From Dehalococcoidia bacterium (GTDB taxonomy: Bacteria > Chloroflexota > Dehalococcoidia > Lucifugimonadales > Australimonadaceae), in the NCBI GenBank assembly GCA_965248065.1, contig OZ252088.1, positions 1,292,773 to 1,356,772 on the forward strand: a stretch of 64,000 nt of DNA, given 5' to 3'. The notes below the pieces were generated by a model. It was given only the letters and a program-made list of their open reading frames with translations, was not told where the DNA came from and did no database searches. Shown one piece after another: positions 3,682 through 38,737 of this stretch. Positions within the stretch are counted from its first letter, which is position 1. Each line of letters begins with the position of its first letter. The translations under genes were made by a program, and so were the position numbers.

Positions 3682-5046
3682 TCACGCCAGGCCGAGCTCT
3701 CTTTCGGTTTCCGTGAGGGCGCGGTCGAAGATGCCGACCATGTCGTCGATGTCCGACTCGGTTACGGTGAGGGGCGGGGCGAAGAAGACCTGGCGGGTCG
3801 CGCGGGTGTAGAGGCCGCTGTCGTTCAGCTTCTGGTTGAGGAGCTTGGTCGCGCCGGGGAGGTCGTTCAGGAGATCTTTGGTGTCCTTGTCGCTGACGAG
3901 CTCGACGGCGCACATGAGGCCGAGGCCGCGCACGTCGCCGACGGTTGGGTGTCCGTACAGGCCTTCGAGGTCTTGGAGAAGGCGCTCGCCCATGCGCTCG
4001 GAGTTCCCGATGAGGTCTTCGCGCTCCATGATGCCGGCGTTTGCGAGTCCGGCGGCGCCGCCCGCGGGATGGCCGCCGTAGGTGATGCCGTGGCGGTAGG
4101 TCTTCTCGGGGCCGCCCTTGAACTCCTCGAAGACGGCGTCGCGGACGACGCAAGCGCCAACGGGGAAGTAGCCGCTGGTGATGCCCTTGGCCATGGTCAT
4201 CATGTCCGGCACGACGCCCCAATGCTCCATGGCGAACCACTTGCCGGTGCGCCCCCATCCGGTGATGACCTCGTCGGCGATGAGGAGGACGCCGTGGCGG
4301 TCGCAGATGTCGCGGAGCATGGGCCAGTACTCGTCGCCGGGGATGGCGACTCCGGCGGAGAAGGAGACGGGCTCGGCGATGACGGCGGCGATGGTCTCGG
4401 GGCCCTCCTCGATGATGATGTCCTCGACGGCCTGGGCGCACTGGACCGTGAACTCGGACAAGGATAGGGACTGGTCCTCGCGGCGGTAGAAGGCGGGCTG
4501 GGGGGCGACGCGGAAGTTGTCGGGCAGGATCTCGGCGTAGCCGGGGCGGTCCAGATTACCGGAGGTCGAAACGCTCAACGCGCCCCGCGTGGTGCCGTGG
4601 TAGGAGCCGTCGCGTCCGATGAACTTGCGTCTGCCGGGCTCGCCGCGGTTGTAGTGGTAGCGGTAGGCGATCTTCAACGCCGTCTCGACGGCCTCGGAGC
4701 CGCCGCTCGTGAAGTACGTGCGATTGAGGTCGCCAGGCGTGAGCGACGCGACCTTCTCGGCGAACCGGATGACGGGCTCGGCGCCGTACTTGAACGTGTT
4801 GGCGTAGTGGAGCGCGCCGAGCTGCGCTGCGATGGCGTCGACGATTTCCTTACGTCCGTGGCCGACGTTCACGAGCATGAGGCCGGCGACGCCGTCGTAG
4901 CCCCAGTTGCCGTCGGAGTCCTTGATGCGGACGCCATCGCCCTCGGACATGACGGTCACGCCGTCCTCGGCGAGCTCGCTCCAATCCTGGGTGGGCATCC
5001 AGAGATGGGCGAGGGCTGCTTCCTGGAGGCTGTCGCGGCGCTGCAT
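3682..5046 (-). CDS. class III (omega) aminotransferase, PLP-dependent
   Basis: 454 aa from ATG 5044-5046 with AAGGAG upstream (ctcctt at 5054-5059 on + strand). Motifs [41 protein letters not shown]. Track start 5169 rejected. Confidence 0.9.
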
Positions 5047-18473: not shown

Positions 18474-18504
18474 TGTTGATGCTCGCCCGCGCGAAGGGGG
18501 CTGG

Positions 18505-18725
18505 ATGAGGAAGTTGTCCGTTTGCATGAAAGCTGCCCACCGCATTTTGGCTAGGCGTGAAAAAGTTGTCGGTTCCACATTTGCCAGGCGTGAAAAGTTG
18601 TCGGGTTTGCATGCTGGTCAGGAGTAAAAAGTTGTTGGATTTGCGGGGTGAGACGAGGGTTTTGGAGGGTGTTTTCGTGGCCGTGGCCTGCTTGCTGGGT
18701 CTCAAAAGTTGATCACCGAGATTTT
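18505..18725 (+). repeat. degenerate direct-repeat array, core (G)TGAAAAAGTTGTCGG(N)TTTGC, 4-5 units
   Basis: Units at ~18507, 18556, 18590, 18624 and 18702 with 33-34-bp spacing in the middle three. Lies in the 640-bp non-coding gap upstream of the amidohydrolase gene. Confidence 0.65.
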
Positions 18726-18970
18726 TGTTTGTGCGGTTGCAGCCCCAGTGGTCCTCTCTCGCAGCCGGAGGGAGTGGCCCTTCCTGGTAGGGGGTGAGGG
18801 CGGCATAGGGCATACAGGGTACGCTCTTGGGGTGGGCTGGGGTAAGGGGCAAGTGTCGCAGGCGCGCTCCTTCAGGCAGTAGTTGTCCCCGGAGGTGTGG
18901 GAGCACGCCAATCGGCCTCGCTTCTAGCAAACAAAGAATACCTATACCCCAGCTCGTGTGATGCGATGAG

Positions 18971-19484
18971 TCATAGAACGTCCAACCTTCTTTGGATGAA
19001 CCAGGAGAAATAGCCATCGTACTTACGCTGGACCTCTTTCTTCATCCAGTCGCGCCCTGTTATGAGCTTCCGGCAGGTCGGAGCGGCGCAGTTGCACTCC
19101 ATTTCGTAGGGCTCGTCGTCAGTCATCGCGTAGTCGAACGTGAGTTCCTCGCCCGGCGGCGATGTCGCGTAGGGCGACGAAAGCTATCTGGCCCTGAACG
19201 CCGAGGTTGGGCTCGCACGAGTGGTTGAGGTGCATCATGCCTCCCTCGCGCTCCGGCTGTGTGGCCGGGCCGAGGAAGAGGTCTTCCGTGACCTGAATCT
19301 CGGCAGGCCCCAGACGGCGCTCGACCTCATCCCGTTGAGCACGGGACATAACGTAGCCTCCCTTGACAACTACGATCTCATCCTTGGCGATTGGCTCTCG
19401 GGCGAAGAGGCCGCGTCCCTCGATGTTGCTGCCGCGCTTTTCAGTCTTTGGGGAGAAATAGGTCAAGTTCACACTGTTATTCAC
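18971..19484 (-). pseudogene. SET-domain (lysine methyltransferase-like) gene with a single-base frameshift
   Basis: N-part is track ORF 19119..19484 (IEGRGLFA, NHSCEPN). After ...DIAAG (codon 19152-19154) one extra base shifts the frame. The other frame (18971-19150) reads EELTFDYAMTDDEPYEMECNCAAPTCRKLITG..., i.e. the SET C-terminus plus a post-SET CxCx4C motif. Confidence 0.8.
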
Positions 19485-30441: not shown

Positions 30442-31881
30442 TTGATTGTCTCGATTGCGGCTTTGGCCGCCGCTTCGCAGTCCCCAAATGCCGCGCTTCC
30501 CACGCTGGAGCTGGAGCGAACGTTTCCCGCGCTCAGGTTCGAGCGGCCGGTGCTACTCACCCATGCAGGCGACGGCTCGGGGCTCGTGTACGTCGTGGAG
30601 CAGGCCGGCGTCATCTACCGGCTGGACCCCGCGGAGCCGGAGCGGTCGGAGGTATTCCTCGACATCCGCGCTCGCGTGAGCCGGGACAGGAACGAGGAGG
30701 GCCTACTGGGTCTGGCCTTCGATCCGGCTTTCGGGGAGAGCGGGCGCTTCTATGTGTACTACAGCGCGGCGGCCCCTCGCCGGTCCGTCCTGTCGCGGTT
30801 TGAGGTCGGCGGCGGTCTGGGAGACGCGGGCTCGGAAGCGATGATTCTGGAAGTGGACCAGCCCTTTTCCAACCACAACGGCGGGATGATCGCGTTTGGG
30901 CCGGATGGGATGCTGTACGTTGCGTTGGGGGACGGCGGTTCGAGCGGGGACCCTCTGGGGAACGGGCAGAATCTCGGCACGCTCTTGGGCTCCATACTCC
31001 GGATCGACGTGGGGCAGGGCGCTCCTTACGTCACACCAACCGATAATCCCTTTTTGGGGAGGCCCGGCGCCCGCGGCGAGATATGGGCCTACGGGCTTCG
31101 CAATCCGTGGCGATTCTCCTTTGACAAGGAGACAGGCGAGCTGTGGACGGGCGACGTGGGCCAGGACGCCGTGGAAGAGGTCAACATCGTGCGCCGGGGC
31201 GCCAACTACGGGTGGAACGTGATGGAGGGGTCCCGCTGCTTTCGCGCCGCGTCGTGCGAGGCCGGCGGTATGGAGGCGCCTGTCGCGGAGTACGGCCATA
31301 GGCTCGGCTGCTCGGTAACCGGCGGGTACGTCTACCGGGGGGAGCGCCTGCCGGAGCTCCAGGGCGTTTACCTGTACGCGGACTTCTGCACCGGCCTCAT
31401 CTGGGGGCTCCGGCACGACGGCGAGCGAGTGACGGAGCAGGGGCAGATTGCCGACGCTCCATTCCAGATAGCGTCGTTTGGGGAGGACGAGGCCGGGGAG
31501 GTCTACATCCTTGGGTTCGACGGAGGCGTCTACACGTTTGCTCCGCCGCCCGGCCAAGCGCCGCCGACTCCAACGGCGACACTCATGCCAACTCCCACGA
31601 GCGCGCCGACGTCCGTGCTCGCGCCCACGGCCGCTCCGCCTGGTGGACCTACGCTTGCGCCGACATCCGGCCTCGCACCCACCGTTACCCCGTCCGGTGA
31701 ACCCACGCTCACGCCTACGCCCGTTTCGTCCATGAGCGCGCCCGCCGTCAGGCCAACGCCGACGCCGTCGGCGGAGCCCTCGTCCAATGCGTTGGCGTGG
31801 GTCCTCATGATAGTGGTCCCGGCGGTTGGGTTGGTTGTTGGAATCGTCGTCTACCTTGTGCGGAGGTCGAGGAGCGGTTAG
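30442..31881 (+). CDS. PQQ-dependent sugar (glucose/sorbosone) dehydrogenase-like beta-propeller with C-terminal Pro/Thr linker and TM anchor
   Basis: EGLLGLAFDP, FSNHNGGMIAFGPDGMLYVALGDGG, YGLRNPWRFSFD, GANYGWNVMEG. C-terminus PTPTATLMPTPTSAPT... then WVLMIVVPAVGLVVGIVVYLV. TTG start as in the track. Confidence 0.8.
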   Translation: MIVSIAALAAASQSPNAALPTLELERTFPALRFERPVLLTHAGDGSGLVYVVEQAGVIYRLDPAEPERSEVFLDIRARVSRDRNEEGLLGLAFDPAFGESGRFYVYYSAAAPRRSVLSRFEVGGGLGDAGSEAMILEVDQPFSNHNGGMIAFGPDGMLYVALGDGGSSGDPLGNGQNLGTLLGSILRIDVGQGAPYVTPTDNPFLGRPGARGEIWAYGLRNPWRFSFDKETGELWTGDVGQDAVEEVNIVRRGANYGWNVMEGSRCFRAASCEAGGMEAPVAEYGHRLGCSVTGGYVYRGERLPELQGVYLYADFCTGLIWGLRHDGERVTEQGQIADAPFQIASFGEDEAGEVYILGFDGGVYTFAPPPGQAPPTPTATLMPTPTSAPTSVLAPTAAPPGGPTLAPTSGLAPTVTPSGEPTLTPTPVSSMSAPAVRPTPTPSAEPSSNALAWVLMIVVPAVGLVVGIVVYLVRRSRSG

Positions 31882-33284
31882 ACGGCGCCCTGGTAGATGC
31901 GCGTGTCCGGCTTGAAGGCGGCCCAGGCGAACCAGAAGTGGTCTTGGGCGTTGACGCGCTCCAATTGTCGGCTGGTCATCGGCCCGGCGACCGCAGCCCC
32001 AAGGATGCTCCAGGAGCTGCCGGTCTCGTTGTCAACGATGGCGCCGGTCGCGGCGTCGCCTTCCAGCCGGAACGTGAGGGGTTGGCCGTCCAGCTCCGGC
32101 CTGAACACGCCAGTCGAGCCGAGGTCTTCGGCCTGGGCAATCTGGGCGGCGCCGAGGGCCGAGTTCGTTCCGAGCTCGAAGAAGACGACGATCTCCTCGC
32201 CGCCGACCTCGTCGTGAACGACGCGCTCTTCCCGGAGCAAGGGGTAAGGGAAGGCTGCGGCGTCGCCATTGATCTCGACGGCGGCTACGCGCTCCTTGGG
32301 GAGCAGTCGCGGGTCCGTGTTGGCGGGTCCGCCGGTCTCCGGGTCGATGTAGAGGAACGGCGGGTTGTCGACGCGGTCGTAGCCGACGTATGGATTGCTC
32401 CCGTACCGGCGGACGTGGCCGGTCTCCCGCGAGAGGACGTCGCCGTGGGGGTAGGCTTCCATGAACGTGGCCCAAGAGATGAGCTGCGCGGGGACGAAGG
32501 CGAGTTGGCCGCCAGCCAGCGCGCCGACGAGGCCTTCGCCAGTGAGCTGCTGCCACCAGCTTTCGGTCTGCCGGTCCCACATGATGAGGTCGCTGTTGCG
32601 CAGGTTGCCGGAGACGCCGAAGTCGTAGACGACGCCGTCGAGGTCGCGCTCGAACACGACCGCCGAGTTGCAGAGAGGGCAGAAGGTGACGGCGACCGGA
32701 ACGCCGCCGAGCCGGTCGTTGGCAATCTCATGCCAGGTGAGAATCTGCAGGGGATAGGCGCGGGCCTCGCCGTTCACCTCCAGCGCGATTACCGGCTCCA
32801 TGTCCTCTATCCATTCGTCGGCCTCGGCGATGGGGACGGACTTGGGGTCGTCGATGGGCGGGATGCCGTCGCGAGGCACGCCTCCGGAGAAGACTTCGTT
32901 GAAGGGGATGGTGTGGAAGCGGAAGTCGGTTTTCCAGACGCGGGTGGAGATGGGGGAAAGCCGGAGGTCCTCGGCGTAGTCAGGGTCGGCGGCGACGAGG
33001 TAGGCGTTGACCTCGGCATCCGGCCCGACGGTCGGCGCGGGACGGCTCGTCGGCGCGGGCGCCGCAGGAGGAGCCGTTGGGGTGGGAGCGGCTGTGGGGG
33101 CGGAGGTCGGCGCCGGCGTGGGAGTCGGGGTCTCGGGCTGTCGAGGCGTTTCGATAGGGGTCGCGGTCGGTGTTGGGGTGGGCGTGCTTGCGGGGCTACA
33201 GGCGGCCGCCGCGAGCGCTATCGCCGTTCCAACCGCCGCCAGCGCTAACCGACTATGTATATTCAGCAACCCCGCCTCCCTCAT
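31878..33284 (-). CDS. DUF3179-family lipoprotein with N-terminal Pro/Thr linker
   Basis: Lipobox LAAAAC; TPTPTPTATP... linker; conserved ILTWHEIAND and VTFCPLCNS segments characteristic of DUF3179 (from memory). Confidence 0.75.
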   Translation of the reverse strand: MREAGLLNIHSRLALAAVGTAIALAAAACSPASTPTPTPTATPIETPRQPETPTPTPAPTSAPTAAPTPTAPPAAPAPTSRPAPTVGPDAEVNAYLVAADPDYAEDLRLSPISTRVWKTDFRFHTIPFNEVFSGGVPRDGIPPIDDPKSVPIAEADEWIEDMEPVIALEVNGEARAYPLQILTWHEIANDRLGGVPVAVTFCPLCNSAVVFERDLDGVVYDFGVSGNLRNSDLIMWDRQTESWWQQLTGEGLVGALAGGQLAFVPAQLISWATFMEAYPHGDVLSRETGHVRRYGSNPYVGYDRVDNPPFLYIDPETGGPANTDPRLLPKERVAAVEINGDAAAFPYPLLREERVVHDEVGGEEIVVFFELGTNSALGAAQIAQAEDLGSTGVFRPELDGQPLTFRLEGDAATGAIVDNETGSSWSILGAAVAGPMTSRQLERVNAQDHFWFAWAAFKPDTRIYQGAV

Positions 33285-33334
33285 CGTTGATTGTTTGGAT
33301 GCGGAGGGCGGGGTTGGGGGTGCGGGTTAGGGGG

Positions 33335-34024
33335 CTAGGGATGGTTGGGTCCCTCCCCTAGGAGCGCGAGGATTCTGTTTTGTAACTGCTCACGCAGTTG
33401 GCTGGTGTCACTCCAGATTATGTGGGGATAGTGGTCGGTGTCGAATGCCAAGGTCGAGCCTTCGCGGCACAAATAGATCACAGGTATGCCTAAGCCGTGG
33501 GCGAAACCCGCCTCATAATAGACGCTTCCGCGCACCCCATCGCCGCCATGTGAAAAATCCGCTATCACAAAACGGGACCTGCGGATCTCGGCAATAATCT
33601 CATCGTCTATCTTACCAAGGAAATTCTTCTTGTCTATTCGCACCGGAGTGTAGCCGGTATCCTCGATAGCAGGTCTGATGCCATTCTCATAAGAATTGTT
33701 CATCGTATCATCGAACCACATGGCGACGAATGCTTGGGAAGTACTGAGATTGGTGTGTCGAGTTTCAAGATGGCGGTATCCGTTAGCGGTTACACGGAAT
33801 GTCTCTTGCGGTGCTGTCCACTGTATCAGTTCGCTATTGGACAAGTGTTCCAATAGTAAATAGATACGTTGCTGTGATATAACACTTAGCGATGAGTCCT
33901 TTGCTATTCTCGGAAGTAGTAAGTGTGTCTTTACATACGAACCTTCCGCATAATTCTCTGAGACAAATTGCAGCAGACGATTCGCTTGCTCATCTATGGG
34001 TAGCGCTTTAGGATTGTTGTTCAT
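33335..34024 (-). CDS. wHTH + nucleoside 2-deoxyribosyltransferase/TIR-like (Rossmannoid) domain protein, low-GC island gene 3
   Basis: Trimmed to ATG 34022-34024 (AAGGAG 9 nt upstream). The N-terminal ~90 aa are winged-helix-like. The C-terminal FVAMWFDD...DDEIIAEIRRSRFVIADFS...GSVYYEAGFAHGLGIPVIYL matches the D/E...YxEhGhAxGhGhPV pattern of NDT/TIR-like folds (pattern recognition only). Confidence 0.6.
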   Translation of the reverse strand: MNNNPKALPIDEQANRLLQFVSENYAEGSYVKTHLLLPRIAKDSSLSVISQQRIYLLLEHLSNSELIQWTAPQETFRVTANGYRHLETRHTNLSTSQAFVAMWFDDTMNNSYENGIRPAIEDTGYTPVRIDKKNFLGKIDDEIIAEIRRSRFVIADFSHGGDGVRGSVYYEAGFAHGLGIPVIYLCREGSTLAFDTDHYPHIIWSDTSQLREQLQNRILALLGEGPNHP

Positions 34025-34144
34025 TTGGAGTTTTCTCCTTACGGTATACTTATCCACTGTATGATTGCGGCTAGCTGGGCAACGTTTAGTGAGTGGATTC
34101 TTGACCGGAGTCTGCATCTCCCGTCTGACTAGATGGACTAGATG

Positions 34145-34630
34145 TTACTCGACGTTCAGTAACGCGGTCTTTGCTGCATTCGTCGAAATTAGCCCCGTTG
34201 CCCACCTTTCATAAATATCCATTACATCCTTTGTTTTGTCATCATCTGCGTACTGGTATGCATTCTGAATACCCGATTCAAGGTTATTGAATGCAGGTTC
34301 AGGAATTATCCATGTGACCCACTGGCGTTCATTGCATGAAAGAGTCACGAAGTAATCGCGGGGTTCACCAGAATCTCCTCCGATGTCGATTCTTCGTATT
34401 AAACCGACTTTCATGCTGACTTCTTCGCGACCACAAACTTGCACGAAGAAGTTGGCTAGGCTTCCTGGAGTATCACAGGCGATTGCAAGCTCATCATCAC
34501 ATGTACTAGTTCCACTGCTGTCCGAGATAAAAGGATACACGGATTGAACGAAAACCAATCCAAATAAGAGAAGGGCCCCTGCTATGGTCCCTAGAATGGA
34601 TAATAGCTTCTTGGGTACTGTCTCAGTCAT
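34145..34630 (-). CDS. N-terminally membrane-anchored protein of unknown function, low-GC island gene 2
   Basis: 161 aa. TM LLSILGTIAGALLLFGLVFV, then a Cys-containing soluble domain. AT-rich codon usage unlike the flanks. 8-nt overlap with gene 1. Confidence 0.6.
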   Translation of the reverse strand: MTETVPKKLLSILGTIAGALLLFGLVFVQSVYPFISDSSGTSTCDDELAIACDTPGSLANFFVQVCGREEVSMKVGLIRRIDIGGDSGEPRDYFVTLSCNERQWVTWIIPEPAFNNLESGIQNAYQYADDDKTKDVMDIYERWATGLISTNAAKTALLNVE

Positions 34631-34919
34631 GGTTGCTCTTCTCTGTCGCCGCTTTGATTATGCCGACCATAGCCGCGCCGAGAGCAAGGAGCCAAATCAC
34701 TATGCCGCCGATGAAGCCGATGAGCAGAAATATCTCGCAAATTCGGAACGCCGCGCCTATGGGCCAGATACCCCAGTTATAGAACTGTTCAGACGCATAG
34801 CTAACAATAACCAATGGCACTACCGCTATGAGCAACGCACAGAACCCGAACGCAAGGATTGCGCCGATGCCGAGAGACCCTTGCAAGATACCGAGGAAAG
34901 TGCGCTTACCTCTCTCCAT
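34623..34919 (-). CDS. small integral membrane protein (3 predicted TM helices), low-GC island gene 1
   Basis: 98 aa. Three long hydrophobic segments. AT-rich codons. First gene of the minus-strand triad. Confidence 0.6.
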   Translation of the reverse strand: MERGKRTFLGILQGSLGIGAILAFGFCALLIAVVPLVIVSYASEQFYNWGIWPIGAAFRICEIFLLIGFIGGIVIWLLALGAAMVGIIKAATEKSNHD

Positions 34920-34985
34920 AGGGGACCACCTGCGGGACGTTGTTGGTTGGTGTGGACACTAGCGCGTACCTGCAATCCCCAAGTG

Positions 34986-36671
34986 TCAGTCCGCTAGGGC
35001 CTCCGCCACTTCCGCCTCGGTGAGGCCGTAGACCGACATCGCCTTCTTTGGGCTGATGAGGCCGTCTTGGATGTCGCCTTTGACGAGATCGTGGTCTCGG
35101 TCGCGGGGGTCGAGGACGCCGCCGCCGCCGCCGGTCTGGATGCTGAAGACGTCGCCGGGCTTGAGGCCGATGTTCGACGCGATGCCCGGGTAACGCTCCT
35201 CGTTCTCCGTACCCGGATGCACGACGACGTAGGCGTTGACGCCGTGGCCGCCGCCGTCGGCGCCGGAGGCTTCGCGCTTCGCCGCGCCGCCGGAGAGCCT
35301 GCTGTTCGAGCGGACCTTGTACTCGCGGACGTAGCCGACCCCGCCGCGGGACTTGCCGTCGCCTCCGGTGTCGGGGATGACCTCGAACTTGGCGACGTCC
35401 ACGGGGAACTCGGACTCGATGATCTCGACGCTGGTGAAGCGTCCGCCGCTGGCCCTGGCGCCGACGCCGCTGAAGCCGTCGCCGCCGTCCCAAGCGCGAG
35501 CGCCCGCGTACATGAGCTCGTACTGCACGTACTGACGGTCGCTGTCGCCCTGGTAGCCGATGACGATGGAGCTCTGGGTGGAGCCGTGGGCAAGGGCGGG
35601 CCGACCGGCCGCCTTGGCCATCGCCGACATGATGACGCTCTCGGCGATGGAGACGGTCTTGGAGTAGAAGCCGACGGGCCCAGGGAACTCGGGCGCGATG
35701 ATGCTGCCCTTCCTGAAGCGGCACTCGATGGCGCTGCCGAGGCCGTGGTTGATGGGCAGGTACGGGTCTGTCATGGCGATGACGCCGTGGTAGACGAGGC
35801 CGCGGATGAACGGCTCGCGGACGTTGATGGGCGCGGCGGCCTGGTCGCCCGTCTGGGTGAAGTCCATGATCAGCCGGTCGCCCTCCTTGATGGCGGAGAC
35901 GTGCAGCCTGATGGGCTTGCCGGGGTTGGAAGGGTCGTCGACCCAGGTCTCGGACTCGTGGACGCCGTCGGCCCACTGGGCGATGTAGTCGCGCGCCTGC
36001 TGCTCCGTTCGCTCGCCGAGGTCGTCGAACATCTGGCGCATCGTGTCGGCGCCGTAGGTCTGGATGGCGTCCTTGACGCGCTCCTCGCCGATGGAGAAGC
36101 AGACGCCAGCCTTGGCGGTGAGGTCGCCAATCATCATTTCGGGAACGCGGCTGTTGGCGCGGACGAACGAGGCGGTGTCCTGCACGAGCTCGTAGTTGCG
36201 CATGTAGCGGACCGGCATGATCTGCAGGCCCTCGCCGAAGATGTCGCGGGAGGTCGCGTTGCGGCTGCCGGCGGCGACGCCGCCGATGTCGGGCGTGTGC
36301 CCCATGCTCGCGGCGAAGGCGATGACCTCGCCCTCGTGGAAGATAGGGGTGATGATCACCATGTCGTTGGCGTGGGGGCAGCCACTGTAGTAAGGATGGT
36401 TGGCGAGGAAGGCGTCGCCCTCCGCCATGTCATCGTGGCTATAGAACTGCAGCAGCCCTTTGATGGACTCCGGGTAGGCCGCCATGTGCGACGGGTGGTT
36501 GGACTGGCCCACCAGCCGTCCCTGGCGGTCGAGCACGCCGCAGCTGAAGTCGTGCGACTCGCGGACGATGGTTGAGAAGCCGGTGCGGAACACCGCCTTT
36601 TCCATCTCGCGGACGATGCCGTCGAGCCTGGCCCTCAGGACCTCGTAGGTGATTGGGTCGACGTGCGCCAT
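34986..36671 (-). CDS. hydantoinase B / oxoprolinase family subunit
   Basis: 561 aa. MAHVDPITYEVLRARLDGIVREME... and the HyuB-type pattern throughout. Paired with HyuA upstream. Confidence 0.9.
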   Translation of the reverse strand: MAHVDPITYEVLRARLDGIVREMEKAVFRTGFSTIVRESHDFSCGVLDRQGRLVGQSNHPSHMAAYPESIKGLLQFYSHDDMAEGDAFLANHPYYSGCPHANDMVIITPIFHEGEVIAFAASMGHTPDIGGVAAGSRNATSRDIFGEGLQIMPVRYMRNYELVQDTASFVRANSRVPEMMIGDLTAKAGVCFSIGEERVKDAIQTYGADTMRQMFDDLGERTEQQARDYIAQWADGVHESETWVDDPSNPGKPIRLHVSAIKEGDRLIMDFTQTGDQAAAPINVREPFIRGLVYHGVIAMTDPYLPINHGLGSAIECRFRKGSIIAPEFPGPVGFYSKTVSIAESVIMSAMAKAAGRPALAHGSTQSSIVIGYQGDSDRQYVQYELMYAGARAWDGGDGFSGVGARASGGRFTSVEIIESEFPVDVAKFEVIPDTGGDGKSRGGVGYVREYKVRSNSRLSGGAAKREASGADGGGHGVNAYVVVHPGTENEERYPGIASNIGLKPGDVFSIQTGGGGGVLDPRDRDHDLVKGDIQDGLISPKKAMSVYGLTEAEVAEALAD

Positions 36672-36682
36672 GGCGTGCTCCT

Positions 36683-38737
36683 TTATGCGATGTCGATGAT
36701 GATGTTCAGGTAGTCGTCGACGAGGGCGCGCTGCCCAGGATAGACGACCGTCGTCGAGTCCAACTGGTCAACGATGGCGGGGCCGTCGAAGCGGTGGCCG
36801 GGTTCGAGGAGGTCGCGGTCGTAGACGGGGCAGGGGGCGAGTCCGGTTGGGCTGTCGAAGCAGACCATTCGCTCGCCGGTCCGGGCCGCGTCCGACGTGG
36901 TCTTGGCGCGGTCGCGCTTCTTGAGCGAGGCTTTCGCGACGACCGCAGAGGCGCGGAGCCGGTAGTTCACGGCCTCCGCGTCCTCGTCGGGCGCCGCGTG
37001 GCCGAACATCTGCTCATGGGTGGCGTCGAAGCGCGTCCGCGCCGCCGAGACGTCCTGCTGGGAGACCGCGCTGTCGGAGCCTAGCGGGATGGTCAGCTCG
37101 TACCCCTGGCCGAGATAGCGGATGTCGATGCTGAACTCCAGCCTGAGCTGGTCGAGGGAGTAGCCCTCGGCGGTGAACTCGCGCTCGGCCTGGGCGCGCA
37201 GGTCGCGCATCAGCTCGCTGAGCTCCTCGGCCTTCAGCTCCGACACCGCCCGCAGCCGTGACCTGACGTAGTCGCGGCGCGGGTCGGCCATGAGCAGGCC
37301 AAGCGCGGACGTCACGCCCGGCGCCGGAGGGACGACCACCTTGGGCATCTTGAGGTCAGCCGCCAGCCGTCCTGAAGGCGCGGGACCGGCTCCGCCGAAC
37401 GCCACCAGCACGAAGTCCCGCAGGTCGTAGCCCTGCTCCGTGGAGACGGCTCGGATGCCCTCCTCCATCTTTGCGTTGATGATGCGGATGATTCCCTCGG
37501 CCGTCTCCAGTGTGCCGAGGCCGAGGCGCTTGCCCATCTCCTCGATGGCTCGCTCCGCTCCGTCCTTGTCGAGGGCGACCCGGCCCGCGAGCTTGGACTC
37601 GGCGTTGAGGAAACCGAGCACCAGATTAGCGTCAGTGACCGTCGGCTGGGAGCCGCCCTTGCCGTAGGACACGGGACCGGGGTCAGCCCCGGCGCTCTCA
37701 GGCCCGACGCGCAGGCCGCCGCCGGACTCGACCGTCGCGATGGTCCCGCCGCCCGCGCCGATGGTGTTGATCATCAGCATCGGCACGGCCAGCTCCCAGT
37801 CGCCGATTCGCCCGGTCGTCGTTTCGAGGACGCGGCCCCCCTGTCCCAGGGCGATGTCCGTGCTGGTCCCGCCCATGTCGAGCGAAACGGCGTTCTCGAA
37901 CCCGGCGGTCAACGCGACCTGCATCCCGGCCATCGCGCCGGCGCAAGGGCCGGAGAGCACCGTGGTGACCGGCGTGACGGTCCCGATGCGCGCGACTCCG
38001 CCGTTGCTCTGCATGACGTAGAGCGCGTCGCTCGTGACCTTCCGCTCGCGGATGCGCTGTTCGAGGGCGTCGAGGTACGCGACCATCATGGGGGCGATGT
38101 AGGCGTTGGCCACCGTGGTGCTGAGGCGCGGGAACTCCCGCATCTGCGGCAGGACTTTCGACGATAGCGAGACTGTGGCGTTCGGCAGCTCCCGCGCGAT
38201 GATTTCGGCGATGCGGTCCTCGTGCCGCGAGTTCAGGAACGAGAAGAGGAGGACGACGGCGATCGATTCGATGCCGCGCCGTCCGAGGGACCGGACGGCC
38301 TCCACGGCCGCCGCCTCGTCCAAAGCGGCGACCACCTCGCCCTTGTGGTTCACGCGCTCCTTCGCTTCCCGGCGGAACCTCGGCTGCACGGGCGGATTCT
38401 TCTCCACGTACACGCTCGTCGCCCTGCTCGAGTCCTCGCTCGGAGCGAGGTGCCACACGTCGTTGATCCCTCCAAACCCTTCGGTAACGAAGAGTCCGAC
38501 GCGTGCGCCGGAGCCGGTCAGCAAGGCGTTCGTGCCGACCGTCGTTCCATGCGACAGGGAGAGCACCTCAGCGGGAGAAAGGCTATCCCCGAACACCTCG
38601 GCCAGTCCGTCGAGGATGGCCTGCCCAGGGTCCGACGGGGTCGAAGGGAGCTTGGTCACGGACAGCGCGCCCGTATCTTGGTCGAGCACGACCATGTCGG
38701 TGAATGTCCCCCCGGTGTCTACTGCGATAGCCTTCAT
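36683..38737 (-). CDS. hydantoinase A / oxoprolinase family subunit
   Basis: 684 aa. IAVDTGGTFTDMVV ATPase start, LSGPCAGAMAG, DMGGTSTDIAL. Confidence 0.9.
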   Translation of the reverse strand: MKAIAVDTGGTFTDMVVLDQDTGALSVTKLPSTPSDPGQAILDGLAEVFGDSLSPAEVLSLSHGTTVGTNALLTGSGARVGLFVTEGFGGINDVWHLAPSEDSSRATSVYVEKNPPVQPRFRREAKERVNHKGEVVAALDEAAAVEAVRSLGRRGIESIAVVLLFSFLNSRHEDRIAEIIARELPNATVSLSSKVLPQMREFPRLSTTVANAYIAPMMVAYLDALEQRIRERKVTSDALYVMQSNGGVARIGTVTPVTTVLSGPCAGAMAGMQVALTAGFENAVSLDMGGTSTDIALGQGGRVLETTTGRIGDWELAVPMLMINTIGAGGGTIATVESGGGLRVGPESAGADPGPVSYGKGGSQPTVTDANLVLGFLNAESKLAGRVALDKDGAERAIEEMGKRLGLGTLETAEGIIRIINAKMEEGIRAVSTEQGYDLRDFVLVAFGGAGPAPSGRLAADLKMPKVVVPPAPGVTSALGLLMADPRRDYVRSRLRAVSELKAEELSELMRDLRAQAEREFTAEGYSLDQLRLEFSIDIRYLGQGYELTIPLGSDSAVSQQDVSAARTRFDATHEQMFGHAAPDEDAEAVNYRLRASAVVAKASLKKRDRAKTTSDAARTGERMVCFDSPTGLAPCPVYDRDLLEPGHRFDGPAIVDQLDSTTVVYPGQRALVDDYLNIIIDIA

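Follow-up and report, generated by a model that had tools for sequence, protein, structure and literature searches.

The single-protein system Swarozyc combines a DUF4062 TIR-like NADase with a winged helix-turn-helix (wHTH) auxiliary domain that binds the phage portal and assembles the NADase complex (bioRxiv 10.64898/2026.05.01.722283). It is found in defence islands and acts by abortive infection via NAD+ depletion. The effector of retron Ec86 (Retron-Eco1) joins a domain like that of nucleoside 2-deoxyribosyltransferases (NDTs) to a wHTH domain and depletes adenine derivatives once it is activated (bioRxiv 10.1101/2023.08.16.553469). PrrC resides within the Type IC restriction locus ecoprrI and becomes active upon inhibition of restriction (PMC12707154), and NDT fusions with variable N-terminal domains have been predicted to be abortive infection (Abi) toxins (PMC3710099). 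With these four precedents, it is reasonable to suppose that a protein described here, g3, is an N-glycosidase effector. g3 is a 229-amino-acid (aa) protein with a wHTH and an NDT/TIR-like domain. Its gene and two others, g1 and g2, occupy a low-GC island in a 64,000-nucleotide stretch of DNA from a Dehalococcoidia bacterium (NCBI GenBank assembly GCA_965248065.1, contig OZ252088.1, positions 1,292,773 to 1,356,772 of the forward strand). We refer to this whole stretch as the window.

We lean toward the explanation that the island is foreign DNA at a hotspot directly downstream of hyuAB, in high-GC genomes of a Chloroflexota-type lineage, that the family of g3 is a restriction-linked defence effector made of one protein, and that g1 and g2 are unrelated cargo. 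An earlier note on this DNA had proposed instead that the three genes form one module, with g3 as the sensor and two membrane proteins as the effectors.

g3 resembles Swarozyc in being a single protein with a TIR/NDT-like, N-glycosidase-type domain that has a catalytic Glu (predicted in g3) and a helix-turn-helix or winged helix. In Swarozyc, however, the order of the domains is reversed, with the TIR-like domain at the N terminus, and g3 has no DUF4062 match. In addition, the text of the Swarozyc paper does not mention 'restriction', whereas the g3 family is restriction-linked. The Ec86 effector has the same two fold classes as g3, and its E106 is conserved in the NDT-like pocket. In contrast to g3, it has an NDT-like N-lobe followed by a wHTH C-lobe, and it needs a reverse transcriptase and multicopy single-stranded DNA (msDNA). 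There is no reverse transcriptase gene or retron RNA near g3, and none surfaced in the census of neighbours at related loci. The C-terminal domain of g3 also matches the profile of a TIR-type effector of CBASS (PDLC00733). Unlike that effector, g3 has no CD-NTase or CBASS gene next to it; its neighbours are hyuB, the DUF3179 gene, g1 and g2, none of which has a PADLOC match.

The P2-like phage AC1 carries, in a variable hotspot, a validated protective cassette of a TIR protein and two transmembrane (TM) proteins (PMC9122126). By gene type, the island loosely matches this cassette of a multi-TM, a single-TM and a TIR-type gene. In contrast to a shared system, g1 and g2 have no match in PADLOC, g1 is an ORFan (an open reading frame without homologues), the homologues of g2 occur without TIR/NDT partners, and the triad is found nowhere else in the data searched. 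The earlier note, which did not recognise the triad as any named system, missed the AC1 system with its same architecture. We take that system to be the one named Rst_2TM_1TM_TIR in DefenseFinder.

The resemblance to PrrC and RloC is one of gene placement: at 16/80 loci, a g3-family gene sits between hsdS and hsdR in the same orientation, and it is often translationally coupled. The effector chemistries are unrelated (anticodon nuclease for PrrC, N-glycosidase fold for g3), and the copy in the window has no restriction neighbour. NDTs, DNPH1 and BcmB (clan of Pfam PF05014) share with g3 the fold and a Glu in a comparable G-x-x-Y/F-E-x-G motif. Unlike them, g3 has an extra wHTH, a sub-threshold Pfam score and a conflict-type rather than a salvage context. 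Scores and neighbours led us to reject g3 as a Pfam NDT, a Pfam TIR protein, a DUF4062 protein, or part of a CBASS operon or a retron. Judging by the structural model, g3 has the fold of the NDT, TIR, DUF4062, CBASS-effector and retron-effector proteins and probably shares their chemistry.

The g3 family and restriction-modification operons

We found that g3 belongs to a large family. At E<=1e-3 it has 5,962 relatives, and the family spans at least 12 phyla. A scan of one genome per GTDB species gave 511 confirmed loci. The context counts below use the best 80 of these 511, that is, those closest to g3, with products 42-63% identical to it. The hosts of these 80 are Dehalococcoidia and other Chloroflexota, Caldilineaceae, Opitutales, Bdellovibrionales, Bacteriovoracales, Spirochaetia, Latescibacterota, Nitrospirales, Rhodothermales, Dadabacteria, Binatia, Gemmatimonadota-type and Acidobacteriota-type bacteria, and several proteobacterial metagenome-assembled genomes (MAGs). 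Names in the record titles (Poriferihabitaceae, Palauibacter and sponge-style bin labels) suggest that many of the hosts are sponge symbionts. The family has no Pfam family of its own, and its match in PADLOC v2.0.0 is to just the TIR-like part of one CBASS effector model. A description of the family was not found in the literature searched, which reflects the limits of that search and is not proof of absence.

We found that the family is restriction-linked. Open reading frames (ORFs) were called in all loci and clustered by all-against-all BLAST. The only neighbours that recurred were the Type I restriction-modification set (HsdM at 16 loci, HsdS at 18 and HsdR at 15), together with a small nucleotidyltransferase-substrate-binding/HEPN-type protein (14 loci) and a Type ISP/IIG enzyme (4 loci). 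With hidden Markov models (HMMs) made from these clusters, Type I or Type ISP/IIG genes were detected within 8 kb of the family gene at 29/80 loci. At 16/80 loci the family gene had hsdS before it and hsdR after it, all in the same orientation and often with 4-nt overlaps; locus L009, for example, reads hsdM-hsdS-family gene-hsdR. Because the gene is frequently found between hsdS and hsdR, a guardian role is suggested. Pfam matches were also counted for the genes next to the family gene. Immediately upstream were Methylase_S (10), N6_Mtase (5), N6_N4_Mtase (4), Type_ISP_C/Eco57I/MmeI (4), ResIII (3) and BsoBI (2), and downstream were ResIII, HSDR_N, T1RH-like_C and SWI2_SNF2, with single cases of TIR_2, UvrD-type helicases, RhuM and DUF4917. 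The recurrent partner of the family is restriction-modification, and not membrane proteins.

A Type II system is found beside a short homologue that is 56% identical to g3 (locus L085). Its gene directly follows an intact methyltransferase-BsoBI pair, and a second family member lies upstream of the pair; the two paralogues are at 298-1200 and 3773-4453 of a 4.7-kb contig. Two family members per genome were also seen in a Bdellovibrionales record (L019 and L030, OZ253553.1, about 25 kb apart) and in a Poriferihabitaceae record (L034 and L071, both OZ244914.1).

Some of the host Type I operons have one to three small nucleotidyltransferase-substrate-binding (HEPN-type) genes upstream of hsdS. 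HsdS in those operons is a fusion with an N-terminal nucleotidyltransferase, i.e., there is an MNT/HEPN-like pair within the operon. This arrangement was seen in L004, L006, L007, L009, L013, L019, L031, L040, L043, L053 and L072.

Relatives of g3 are also found on mobile elements. Relatives of its C-terminal domain occur on conjugative plasmids (one, in Bradyrhizobium, adjoins a ThiF-type E1 gene), in 28 IMG/VR viral contigs, and in PHROG families whose function is unknown. In nearly all high-GC hosts, the family gene is approximately 10 GC points below its own locus. Because the family is found in restriction-modification operons, and on plasmids and prophages as well, the conflict/defence role put forward in the earlier note is plausible for g3. 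It is not supported for the three genes as a module.

The common form of the family is ~320 aa long and has an extra N-terminal domain of ~90 aa (CxIWG...R.GG.Y...KARLTTW). Short forms of 226-246 aa recur (P0002-4, P0007, P0036, P0058, P0072 and P0100), so g3 belongs to a class of short forms and is not a one-off truncation. A 317-aa homologue on plasmid p396 of Bacillus mycoides (L096, 4488-5441), labelled 'nucleoside 2-deoxyribosyltransferase' by the annotation pipeline PGAP, has an N-terminal CxxC...CxxC zinc ribbon. At the position of these four cysteines, the long forms of the Chloroflexota type have a single conserved Cys. The N-terminal domain of the family may thus be a degenerate zinc ribbon.

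The two domains of g3

The ORF of g3 has an alternative start 31 codons earlier, at 34117, which would give a protein of 260 aa. We found no support for this reading: the short homologues, and a database entry identical to g3 (P0001), begin at the 229-aa position. The gene appears intact. It has a strong ribosome-binding site of its own, and the product retains 70 of the 75 positions with a conservation of 90% or more among 59 relatives.

We built an AlphaFold2 model of g3 on 60 relatives (pLDDT, the confidence score of the model, 86.7). In agreement with the earlier note, which had read g3 as a winged helix followed by an NDT/TIR-like domain, the model has both parts, Foldseek finds matches to the second, and the motifs quoted in the note are present. 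The secondary structure of the N-terminal part, as assigned by DSSP, is H10-24, H33-41, H51-63, E67-70, E75-78, H80-93. Profile matches of this part were weak and non-significant, both to the wHTH region of P1 ParA and, in one relative of g3, to Pfam wHTH-PRTase_assc.

The C-terminal domain (aa 97-222) matched two groups of structures in the PDB. One consists of the NDTs 2a0k, 6qai, 7o62 and 8pqr, the CMP N-glycosidase BcmB (4jen) and DNPH1 (9i6e), with E of 5e-4 to 2e-3 and TM(target) of 0.5-0.69. The other consists of the TIR domains of SARM1, TIR-1, SPARTA TIR-APAZ, AbTir and RUN1. Taken together, the E values of both groups range from 5e-4 to 3e-3, and the groups match about equally well.

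Profile searches gave weak or partial matches. Pfam Nuc_deoxyrib_tr (PF05014) scored 15.2 bits on g3 (E=0.024), below the gathering threshold of 28.8 bits, and 14-26 bits on six relatives, all sub-threshold. There was no match at E<=1 to Pfam TIR, TIR_2, ThsB_TIR or DUF4062 for g3 or the six relatives, and none in NCBIfam for g3. PADLOC, which the earlier note had proposed to run, gave one significant match: the CBASS model PDLC00733 ('Effector TIR') to the C-terminal domain of g3 (E=2e-13, covering just ~105 of 388 model positions). The same model matched the six relatives at E of 3e-14 to 5e-9; g1 and g2 had no match. phrog_16139, of unknown function, matched the C-terminal domain at E=9e-34.

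The residues that are invariant in 60 family members include E171, in the motif VYYEAGFA, and D141, E146, D156, R165, G166, D195 and H201. By its position in the motif, E171 is the predicted catalytic Glu and would correspond to Glu98 of the Lactobacillus leichmannii NDT or to the Glu of TIR domains.

The island, its hotspot and the genes g1 and g2

The composition of the island differs from that of its flanks. In 200-nt windows, GC is 0.425-0.53 across about 33400-34900 and 0.62-0.755 on either side, which bears out the low GC that the earlier note had estimated from a few hand-counted lines. The island is the sole stretch below 0.53 GC in the window, whose mean is 0.652 (500-nt windows). GC and GC3 (GC at third codon positions) are 0.486 and 0.535 for g3, 0.453 and 0.432 for g2, and 0.532 and 0.646 for g1, compared to 0.682 and 0.851 for the DUF3179 gene and 0.676 and 0.932 for hyuB. 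Because GC and GC3 break so sharply from the flanks, we conclude, as the note had, that the island is foreign DNA that was horizontally acquired. One further 500-nt window, at 18501-19000, is below 0.57 GC (0.556), a far weaker dip than that of the island.

Table 1. Positions, in the window, of the island, its genes and its flanks
Feature	Position	Strand	Basis or remark
Low-GC island, variable hotspot directly 3' of hyuB	33285..34985	.	between DUF3179 start and hyuB stop
g3, 229-aa wHTH + NDT/TIR-like protein	33335-34024	minus	
g3 winged-helix region, aa 10-93	33746..33997	minus	H-H-H-beta-beta topology, then linker helix, in AlphaFold2 model
g3 NDT/TIR-like Rossmannoid domain, aa 97-222	33359..33736	minus	alpha/beta in AlphaFold2 model
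Glu171 codon, predicted catalytic glutamate, in VYYEAGFA	33512..33514	minus	invariant in 60 family members
AAGGAG ribosome-binding site, 10 nt ahead of g3 ATG (34022-34024)	34035-34040	minus	direct reading of sequence
g2, 161-aa N-terminally anchored four-cysteine protein	34145-34630	minus	
g1, 98-aa hydrophobic ORFan	34623-34919	minus	
DUF3179 gene	31878-33284	minus	Pfam E=4e-104
hyuB, Hydantoinase_B	34986-36671	minus	Pfam E=5e-131
Hydantoinase A gene, beyond hyuB	36683-38737		
G+C-rich inverted repeat, 19-nt arms (84% complementary), 12-nt loop	33267-33316	.	between g3 stop and DUF3179 start

The gene structure is as the earlier note had described it (Table 1). The island lies between DUF3179 and hyuB, both confirmed by Pfam, and holds three co-directional genes on the minus strand. 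g1 and g2 overlap by 8 nt (ATGACTGA), and a gap of 120 nt, with the AAGGAG site of g3, separates g2 from g3. There is a promoter-like site upstream of g3, at 34242-34214. The note had seen no integrase or att repeats, and we found no integrase ORF and no att-like direct repeats at the island, just short chance matches. There is no tRNA nearby; the sole tRNA is 9.4 kb away. No reverse transcriptase ORF was found in the island or its flanks, and no Rfam match (retron msr/msd, riboswitches) was found at E<=1 in 31000-37000.

Downstream of g3, one arm of an inverted repeat spans the ATG and the ribosome-binding region of the DUF3179 gene. This repeat may be a transcription terminator for g3, an attenuator, or a mask of DUF3179 translation initiation. 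On the same side of the island, the products of the DUF3179 gene and of the gene beyond it (30442-31881) both have long Pro/Thr-rich linkers. One of them, of 479 aa, ends in a hydrophobic anchor, and the pair resembles surface-tethered proteins.

We found that the island lies in a hotspot. The hyuA-hyuB block of the window is also present in four metagenomic relatives (HyuB 84-88% and HyuA 83-84% identical), and the nucleotide alignment with them breaks off exactly at the hyuB stop codon. All four have a g3-family gene directly downstream of hyuB, in islands that are likewise low in GC. These genes are just 50-65% identical to g3 and to each other. The accompanying genes vary. There is no gene between hyuB and the g3 homologue in L083. 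In L002 there is a gene for an 88-aa Cys-rich protein, and in L084, which has the closest homologue of g3 (65% identical), there are genes for an 89-aa Cys-rich protein and an unrelated 132-aa multi-TM protein. In L001, the g3 homologue is preceded by a ParA-like gene, ORFs of 188 and 60 aa and, directly upstream, a 94-aa C-terminal fragment of BsoBI. On the far side of the island, Amidohydro_3 and EamA genes follow in the relatives; in the window DUF3179 takes their place, and they are absent from all of it. Because the companions vary and the family gene is always present, next to HyuB proteins that are 84-88% identical, we conclude that the locus is a hotspot with the family gene as its constant element, either fast-evolving or repeatedly replaced.

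The Cys-rich proteins of L002 (5572-5838) and L084 (453-722) have a CxCG...CxxC pattern, and their genes lie just ahead of that of the g3 homologue. They are 52% identical to one another, a divergence similar to that of the g3 homologues, and this gene is in no locus other than L002 and L084. It may form a two-gene module with the g3 homologue in that sub-lineage.

g1 finds solely itself among 5.8 billion proteins. It has no significant match in Pfam, PADLOC or NCBIfam, and its best PHROG match is marginal (phrog_25697, unknown function, E=7e-4). The earlier note had given it three TM helices. The protein is indeed hydrophobic, with two long stretches (aa 7-47 and aa 51-92) that have room for 3-4 helices; as an ORFan, it is unproven as a real gene. 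g1 may be a real small membrane protein, and beyond the ORF itself nothing backs it.

In the case of g2, nothing was found in a word-indexed gene-call database, and a phmmer search of 1.84 billion representatives gave ~22 full-length relatives (27-41% identical, E down to 4e-21). This rare family shares the single N-terminal anchor that the note had described, four invariant cysteines (C44, C52, C66 and C99) that the note had not, and a C-terminal helical motif. The AlphaFold2 model of g2 (pLDDT 87.2) has no fold neighbours at E<0.05 in the PDB or BFVD. We read the contexts of six g2 relatives and found lipoproteins, a secreted staphylococcal nuclease (SNase)-type nuclease, a mobile-element-like block and metabolic genes; a g3-family gene was beside the g2 homologue in 0/6. 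One g2 homologue (L086/L087) has a gene for an 83-aa multi-TM protein upstream and, convergent to it, a gene for a 193-aa protein (L086 2310-2891, L087 1259-1840) with sub-threshold matches to ThsB_TIR (E=0.0015) and TIR_2. Nothing else hints at an occasional association of g2-type proteins with TIR-like genes.

Neither g1 nor g2 was found at any g3-family locus (0/85), and small TM neighbours of any kind are rare (about 5/77 loci); on that count we rejected a regular pairing of the family with such proteins. Outside this window, the three genes are never together in the data searched, an outcome that the note had itself listed as refuting its proposal, and in the relatives the g3 homologue is alone or with unrelated genes. 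g2 is not a conserved partner of g3. The triad of sensor and membrane effectors proposed in the earlier note, and the conserved synteny that it had asked for, are thus not borne out.

We also rejected the notion that decayed restriction genes underlie g1 and g2: tblastx and blastn comparisons with the islands of the relatives matched only over g3. The C-terminal 26 residues of g2 (34135-34207) resemble the C terminus of a 117-aa protein of L001 (6705-7058, minus strand; 50% identity, E=3e-4 in a small search), whose gene is just downstream of the L001 g3 homologue.

Weighing the explanations

The explanation that we favor treats the g3 family as self-contained effectors, one protein each, that travel with restriction-modification systems. 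The winged helix, together with the N-terminal domain in the ~320-aa form, would serve for sensing or assembly. The C-terminal domain, as an N-glycosidase, would destroy the NAD+ or nucleotide pool once it is triggered, and this loss would stop phage growth. A family gene between hsdS and hsdR would back up or guard the restriction enzyme, much as PrrC does. In the window, g3 would be an orphan copy that has neither a restriction partner nor the N-terminal domain, and it could act alone, act differently or be idle. g1 and g2 would be unrelated cargo of the same hotspot and not effectors of g3.

Several points weigh against this explanation. The defence role of the family rests on guilt by association. 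Approximately 60% of the sampled loci have no Type I or ISP/IIG gene, and the restriction counts stand without a computed background rate. The restriction HMMs derive from the same loci that they score, and the hsdS model takes in the fused nucleotidyltransferase domain, so five 'hsdS-only' loci are possibly over-counted. The 80 loci, being the best of 511, come mostly from one kind of MAG and are not independent. The copy in the window does not share the typical setting: it is not placed in an hsd operon, no homologues of the family-linked restriction genes were found across the 64 kb, and the ~90-aa N-terminal domain of the common form is missing. Given the missing restriction system and domain, this copy may work differently or be idle. 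In the structural model, NDT and TIR assignments are not separable by fold alone, and no relative at the sequence level, with a full-length or a C-domain-weighted profile, has a solved structure. Finally, g1, g2 and g3 share the island and the strand, so a local functional link is possible, and one g2 homologue is beside the sub-threshold ThsB-like TIR protein.

An alternative, that of the earlier note, is that g1, g2 and g3 are one system, in which g3 senses infection and makes or destroys a nucleotide while g1 and g2, as membrane effectors, bring about cell death. We consider this unlikely. It would fit with three co-directional genes in one low-GC island, two of them overlapping by 8 nt, and the AC1 system, with the same gene types, protects against lambda, LF82_P8 and P2 (PMC9122126). 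A small multi-TM protein, albeit an unrelated one, also precedes the homologue in L084, and L086/L087 have the TM protein and the ThsB_TIR-like neighbour (below the cut-off) described above. However, g1 is without any homologue, the g3 homologue of L083 has no companion, and the counts of shared context (0/6 from the side of g2, where the neighbours are mostly lipoproteins or a secreted nuclease; 0/85 and about 5/77 from the side of g3) go against a conserved unit. In addition, a 120-nt gap, its own ribosome-binding site and the promoter-like site set g3 apart. Neither g1 nor g2 has a match in PADLOC, and the four invariant cysteines of g2 point to an extracytoplasmic domain with disulfide bonds and not to a pore former. 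It is even harder to believe that g3 is a decaying, non-functional relic of a restriction-modification island, with g1 and g2 being ORFs that are young or arose by chance. In favor of this, no restriction system was found in the 64 kb, g3 has no N-terminal domain, the BsoBI fragment in L001 shows that decay occurs at the hotspot, g1 is an ORFan and g2 is absent from the word-indexed gene-call database. But the g3 ORF is intact and has a strong ribosome-binding site, 70/75 conserved positions are kept, including all of the invariant ones, and short forms recur in several genomes, one of them beside an intact BsoBI system. Nor does g2 look like a chance ORF, with real homologues, conserved cysteines and a confident predicted fold, and tblastx finds no remnants of restriction genes in the g1/g2 region.

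Other explanations concern the chemistry of the family rather than its partners. The family might be DNA-directed glycosylases, with the wHTH guiding an NDT-like domain that strips modified bases from phage DNA; it would be a modification-dependent, Type IV-like partner of restriction, directed at phages that escape the classical enzymes. A domain of a nucleic-acid-binding type is fused to an N-glycosidase fold, defence-linked NDT domains have been proposed to act on DNA (Anantharaman et al., PMC3710099), and among the nearest folds with a solved structure are those of DNPH1 and BcmB, whose substrates are modified or pyrimidine nucleotides. In at least one case, an island of Vibrio cholerae, a Type I system is reported to occur together with a second, distinct restriction system (PMC11411939). 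We nevertheless regard this as improbable. Known proteins with this fold use free nucleosides, nucleotides or NAD+ as substrates rather than polymeric DNA. The CBASS model of a TIR-type NADase effector gives the strongest sequence signal, and the wHTH domains of Swarozyc and the Ec86 effector bind protein or msDNA and assemble, with no recognition of target DNA. We give hardly any credence to a housekeeping role, as a regulator or salvage enzyme of the hydantoinase/amidohydrolase cluster for nucleobase-type catabolism. In all five related genomes the gene is between hyuAB and the Amidohydro_3/EamA block (DUF3179 in the window), NDT-fold enzymes do work in nucleoside salvage, and PGAP gives the Bacillus relative an NDT name. 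However, the GC of g3 is approximately 20 points below that of the cluster, the family gene is 50-65% identical among relatives whose neighbouring proteins are 84-88% identical, and the Pfam NDT score is under the cut-off. Outside this lineage the family is linked to restriction genes, plasmids and prophages and not to hyu.

We return to the restriction-linked effector with a bolder version of it, which we hold only tentatively. The family could be an undescribed and widespread class of restriction-linked wHTH-NDT/TIR-like immune effectors that provide a second line when restriction fails or is inhibited, in Type I, Type ISP/IIG and Type II restriction-modification operons of at least a dozen phyla, and that spread horizontally through symbiont communities. 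The short form in the window would then have shed its N-terminal domain and its partner, and it may have recruited membrane proteins. The parts of the family and its logic are all of known kinds.

What is inherited as a unit in the window is a single gene in a hotspot and not a three-gene module. If the restriction-linked explanation is true, a very abundant effector would join the short list of genes inside restriction operons. It would also link NAD+- or nucleotide-depleting TIR/NDT-like enzymes with restriction-modification, themes that are usually studied apart. The family is large, restriction-linked and easy to test, and it would be one more candidate effector rather than a new principle.

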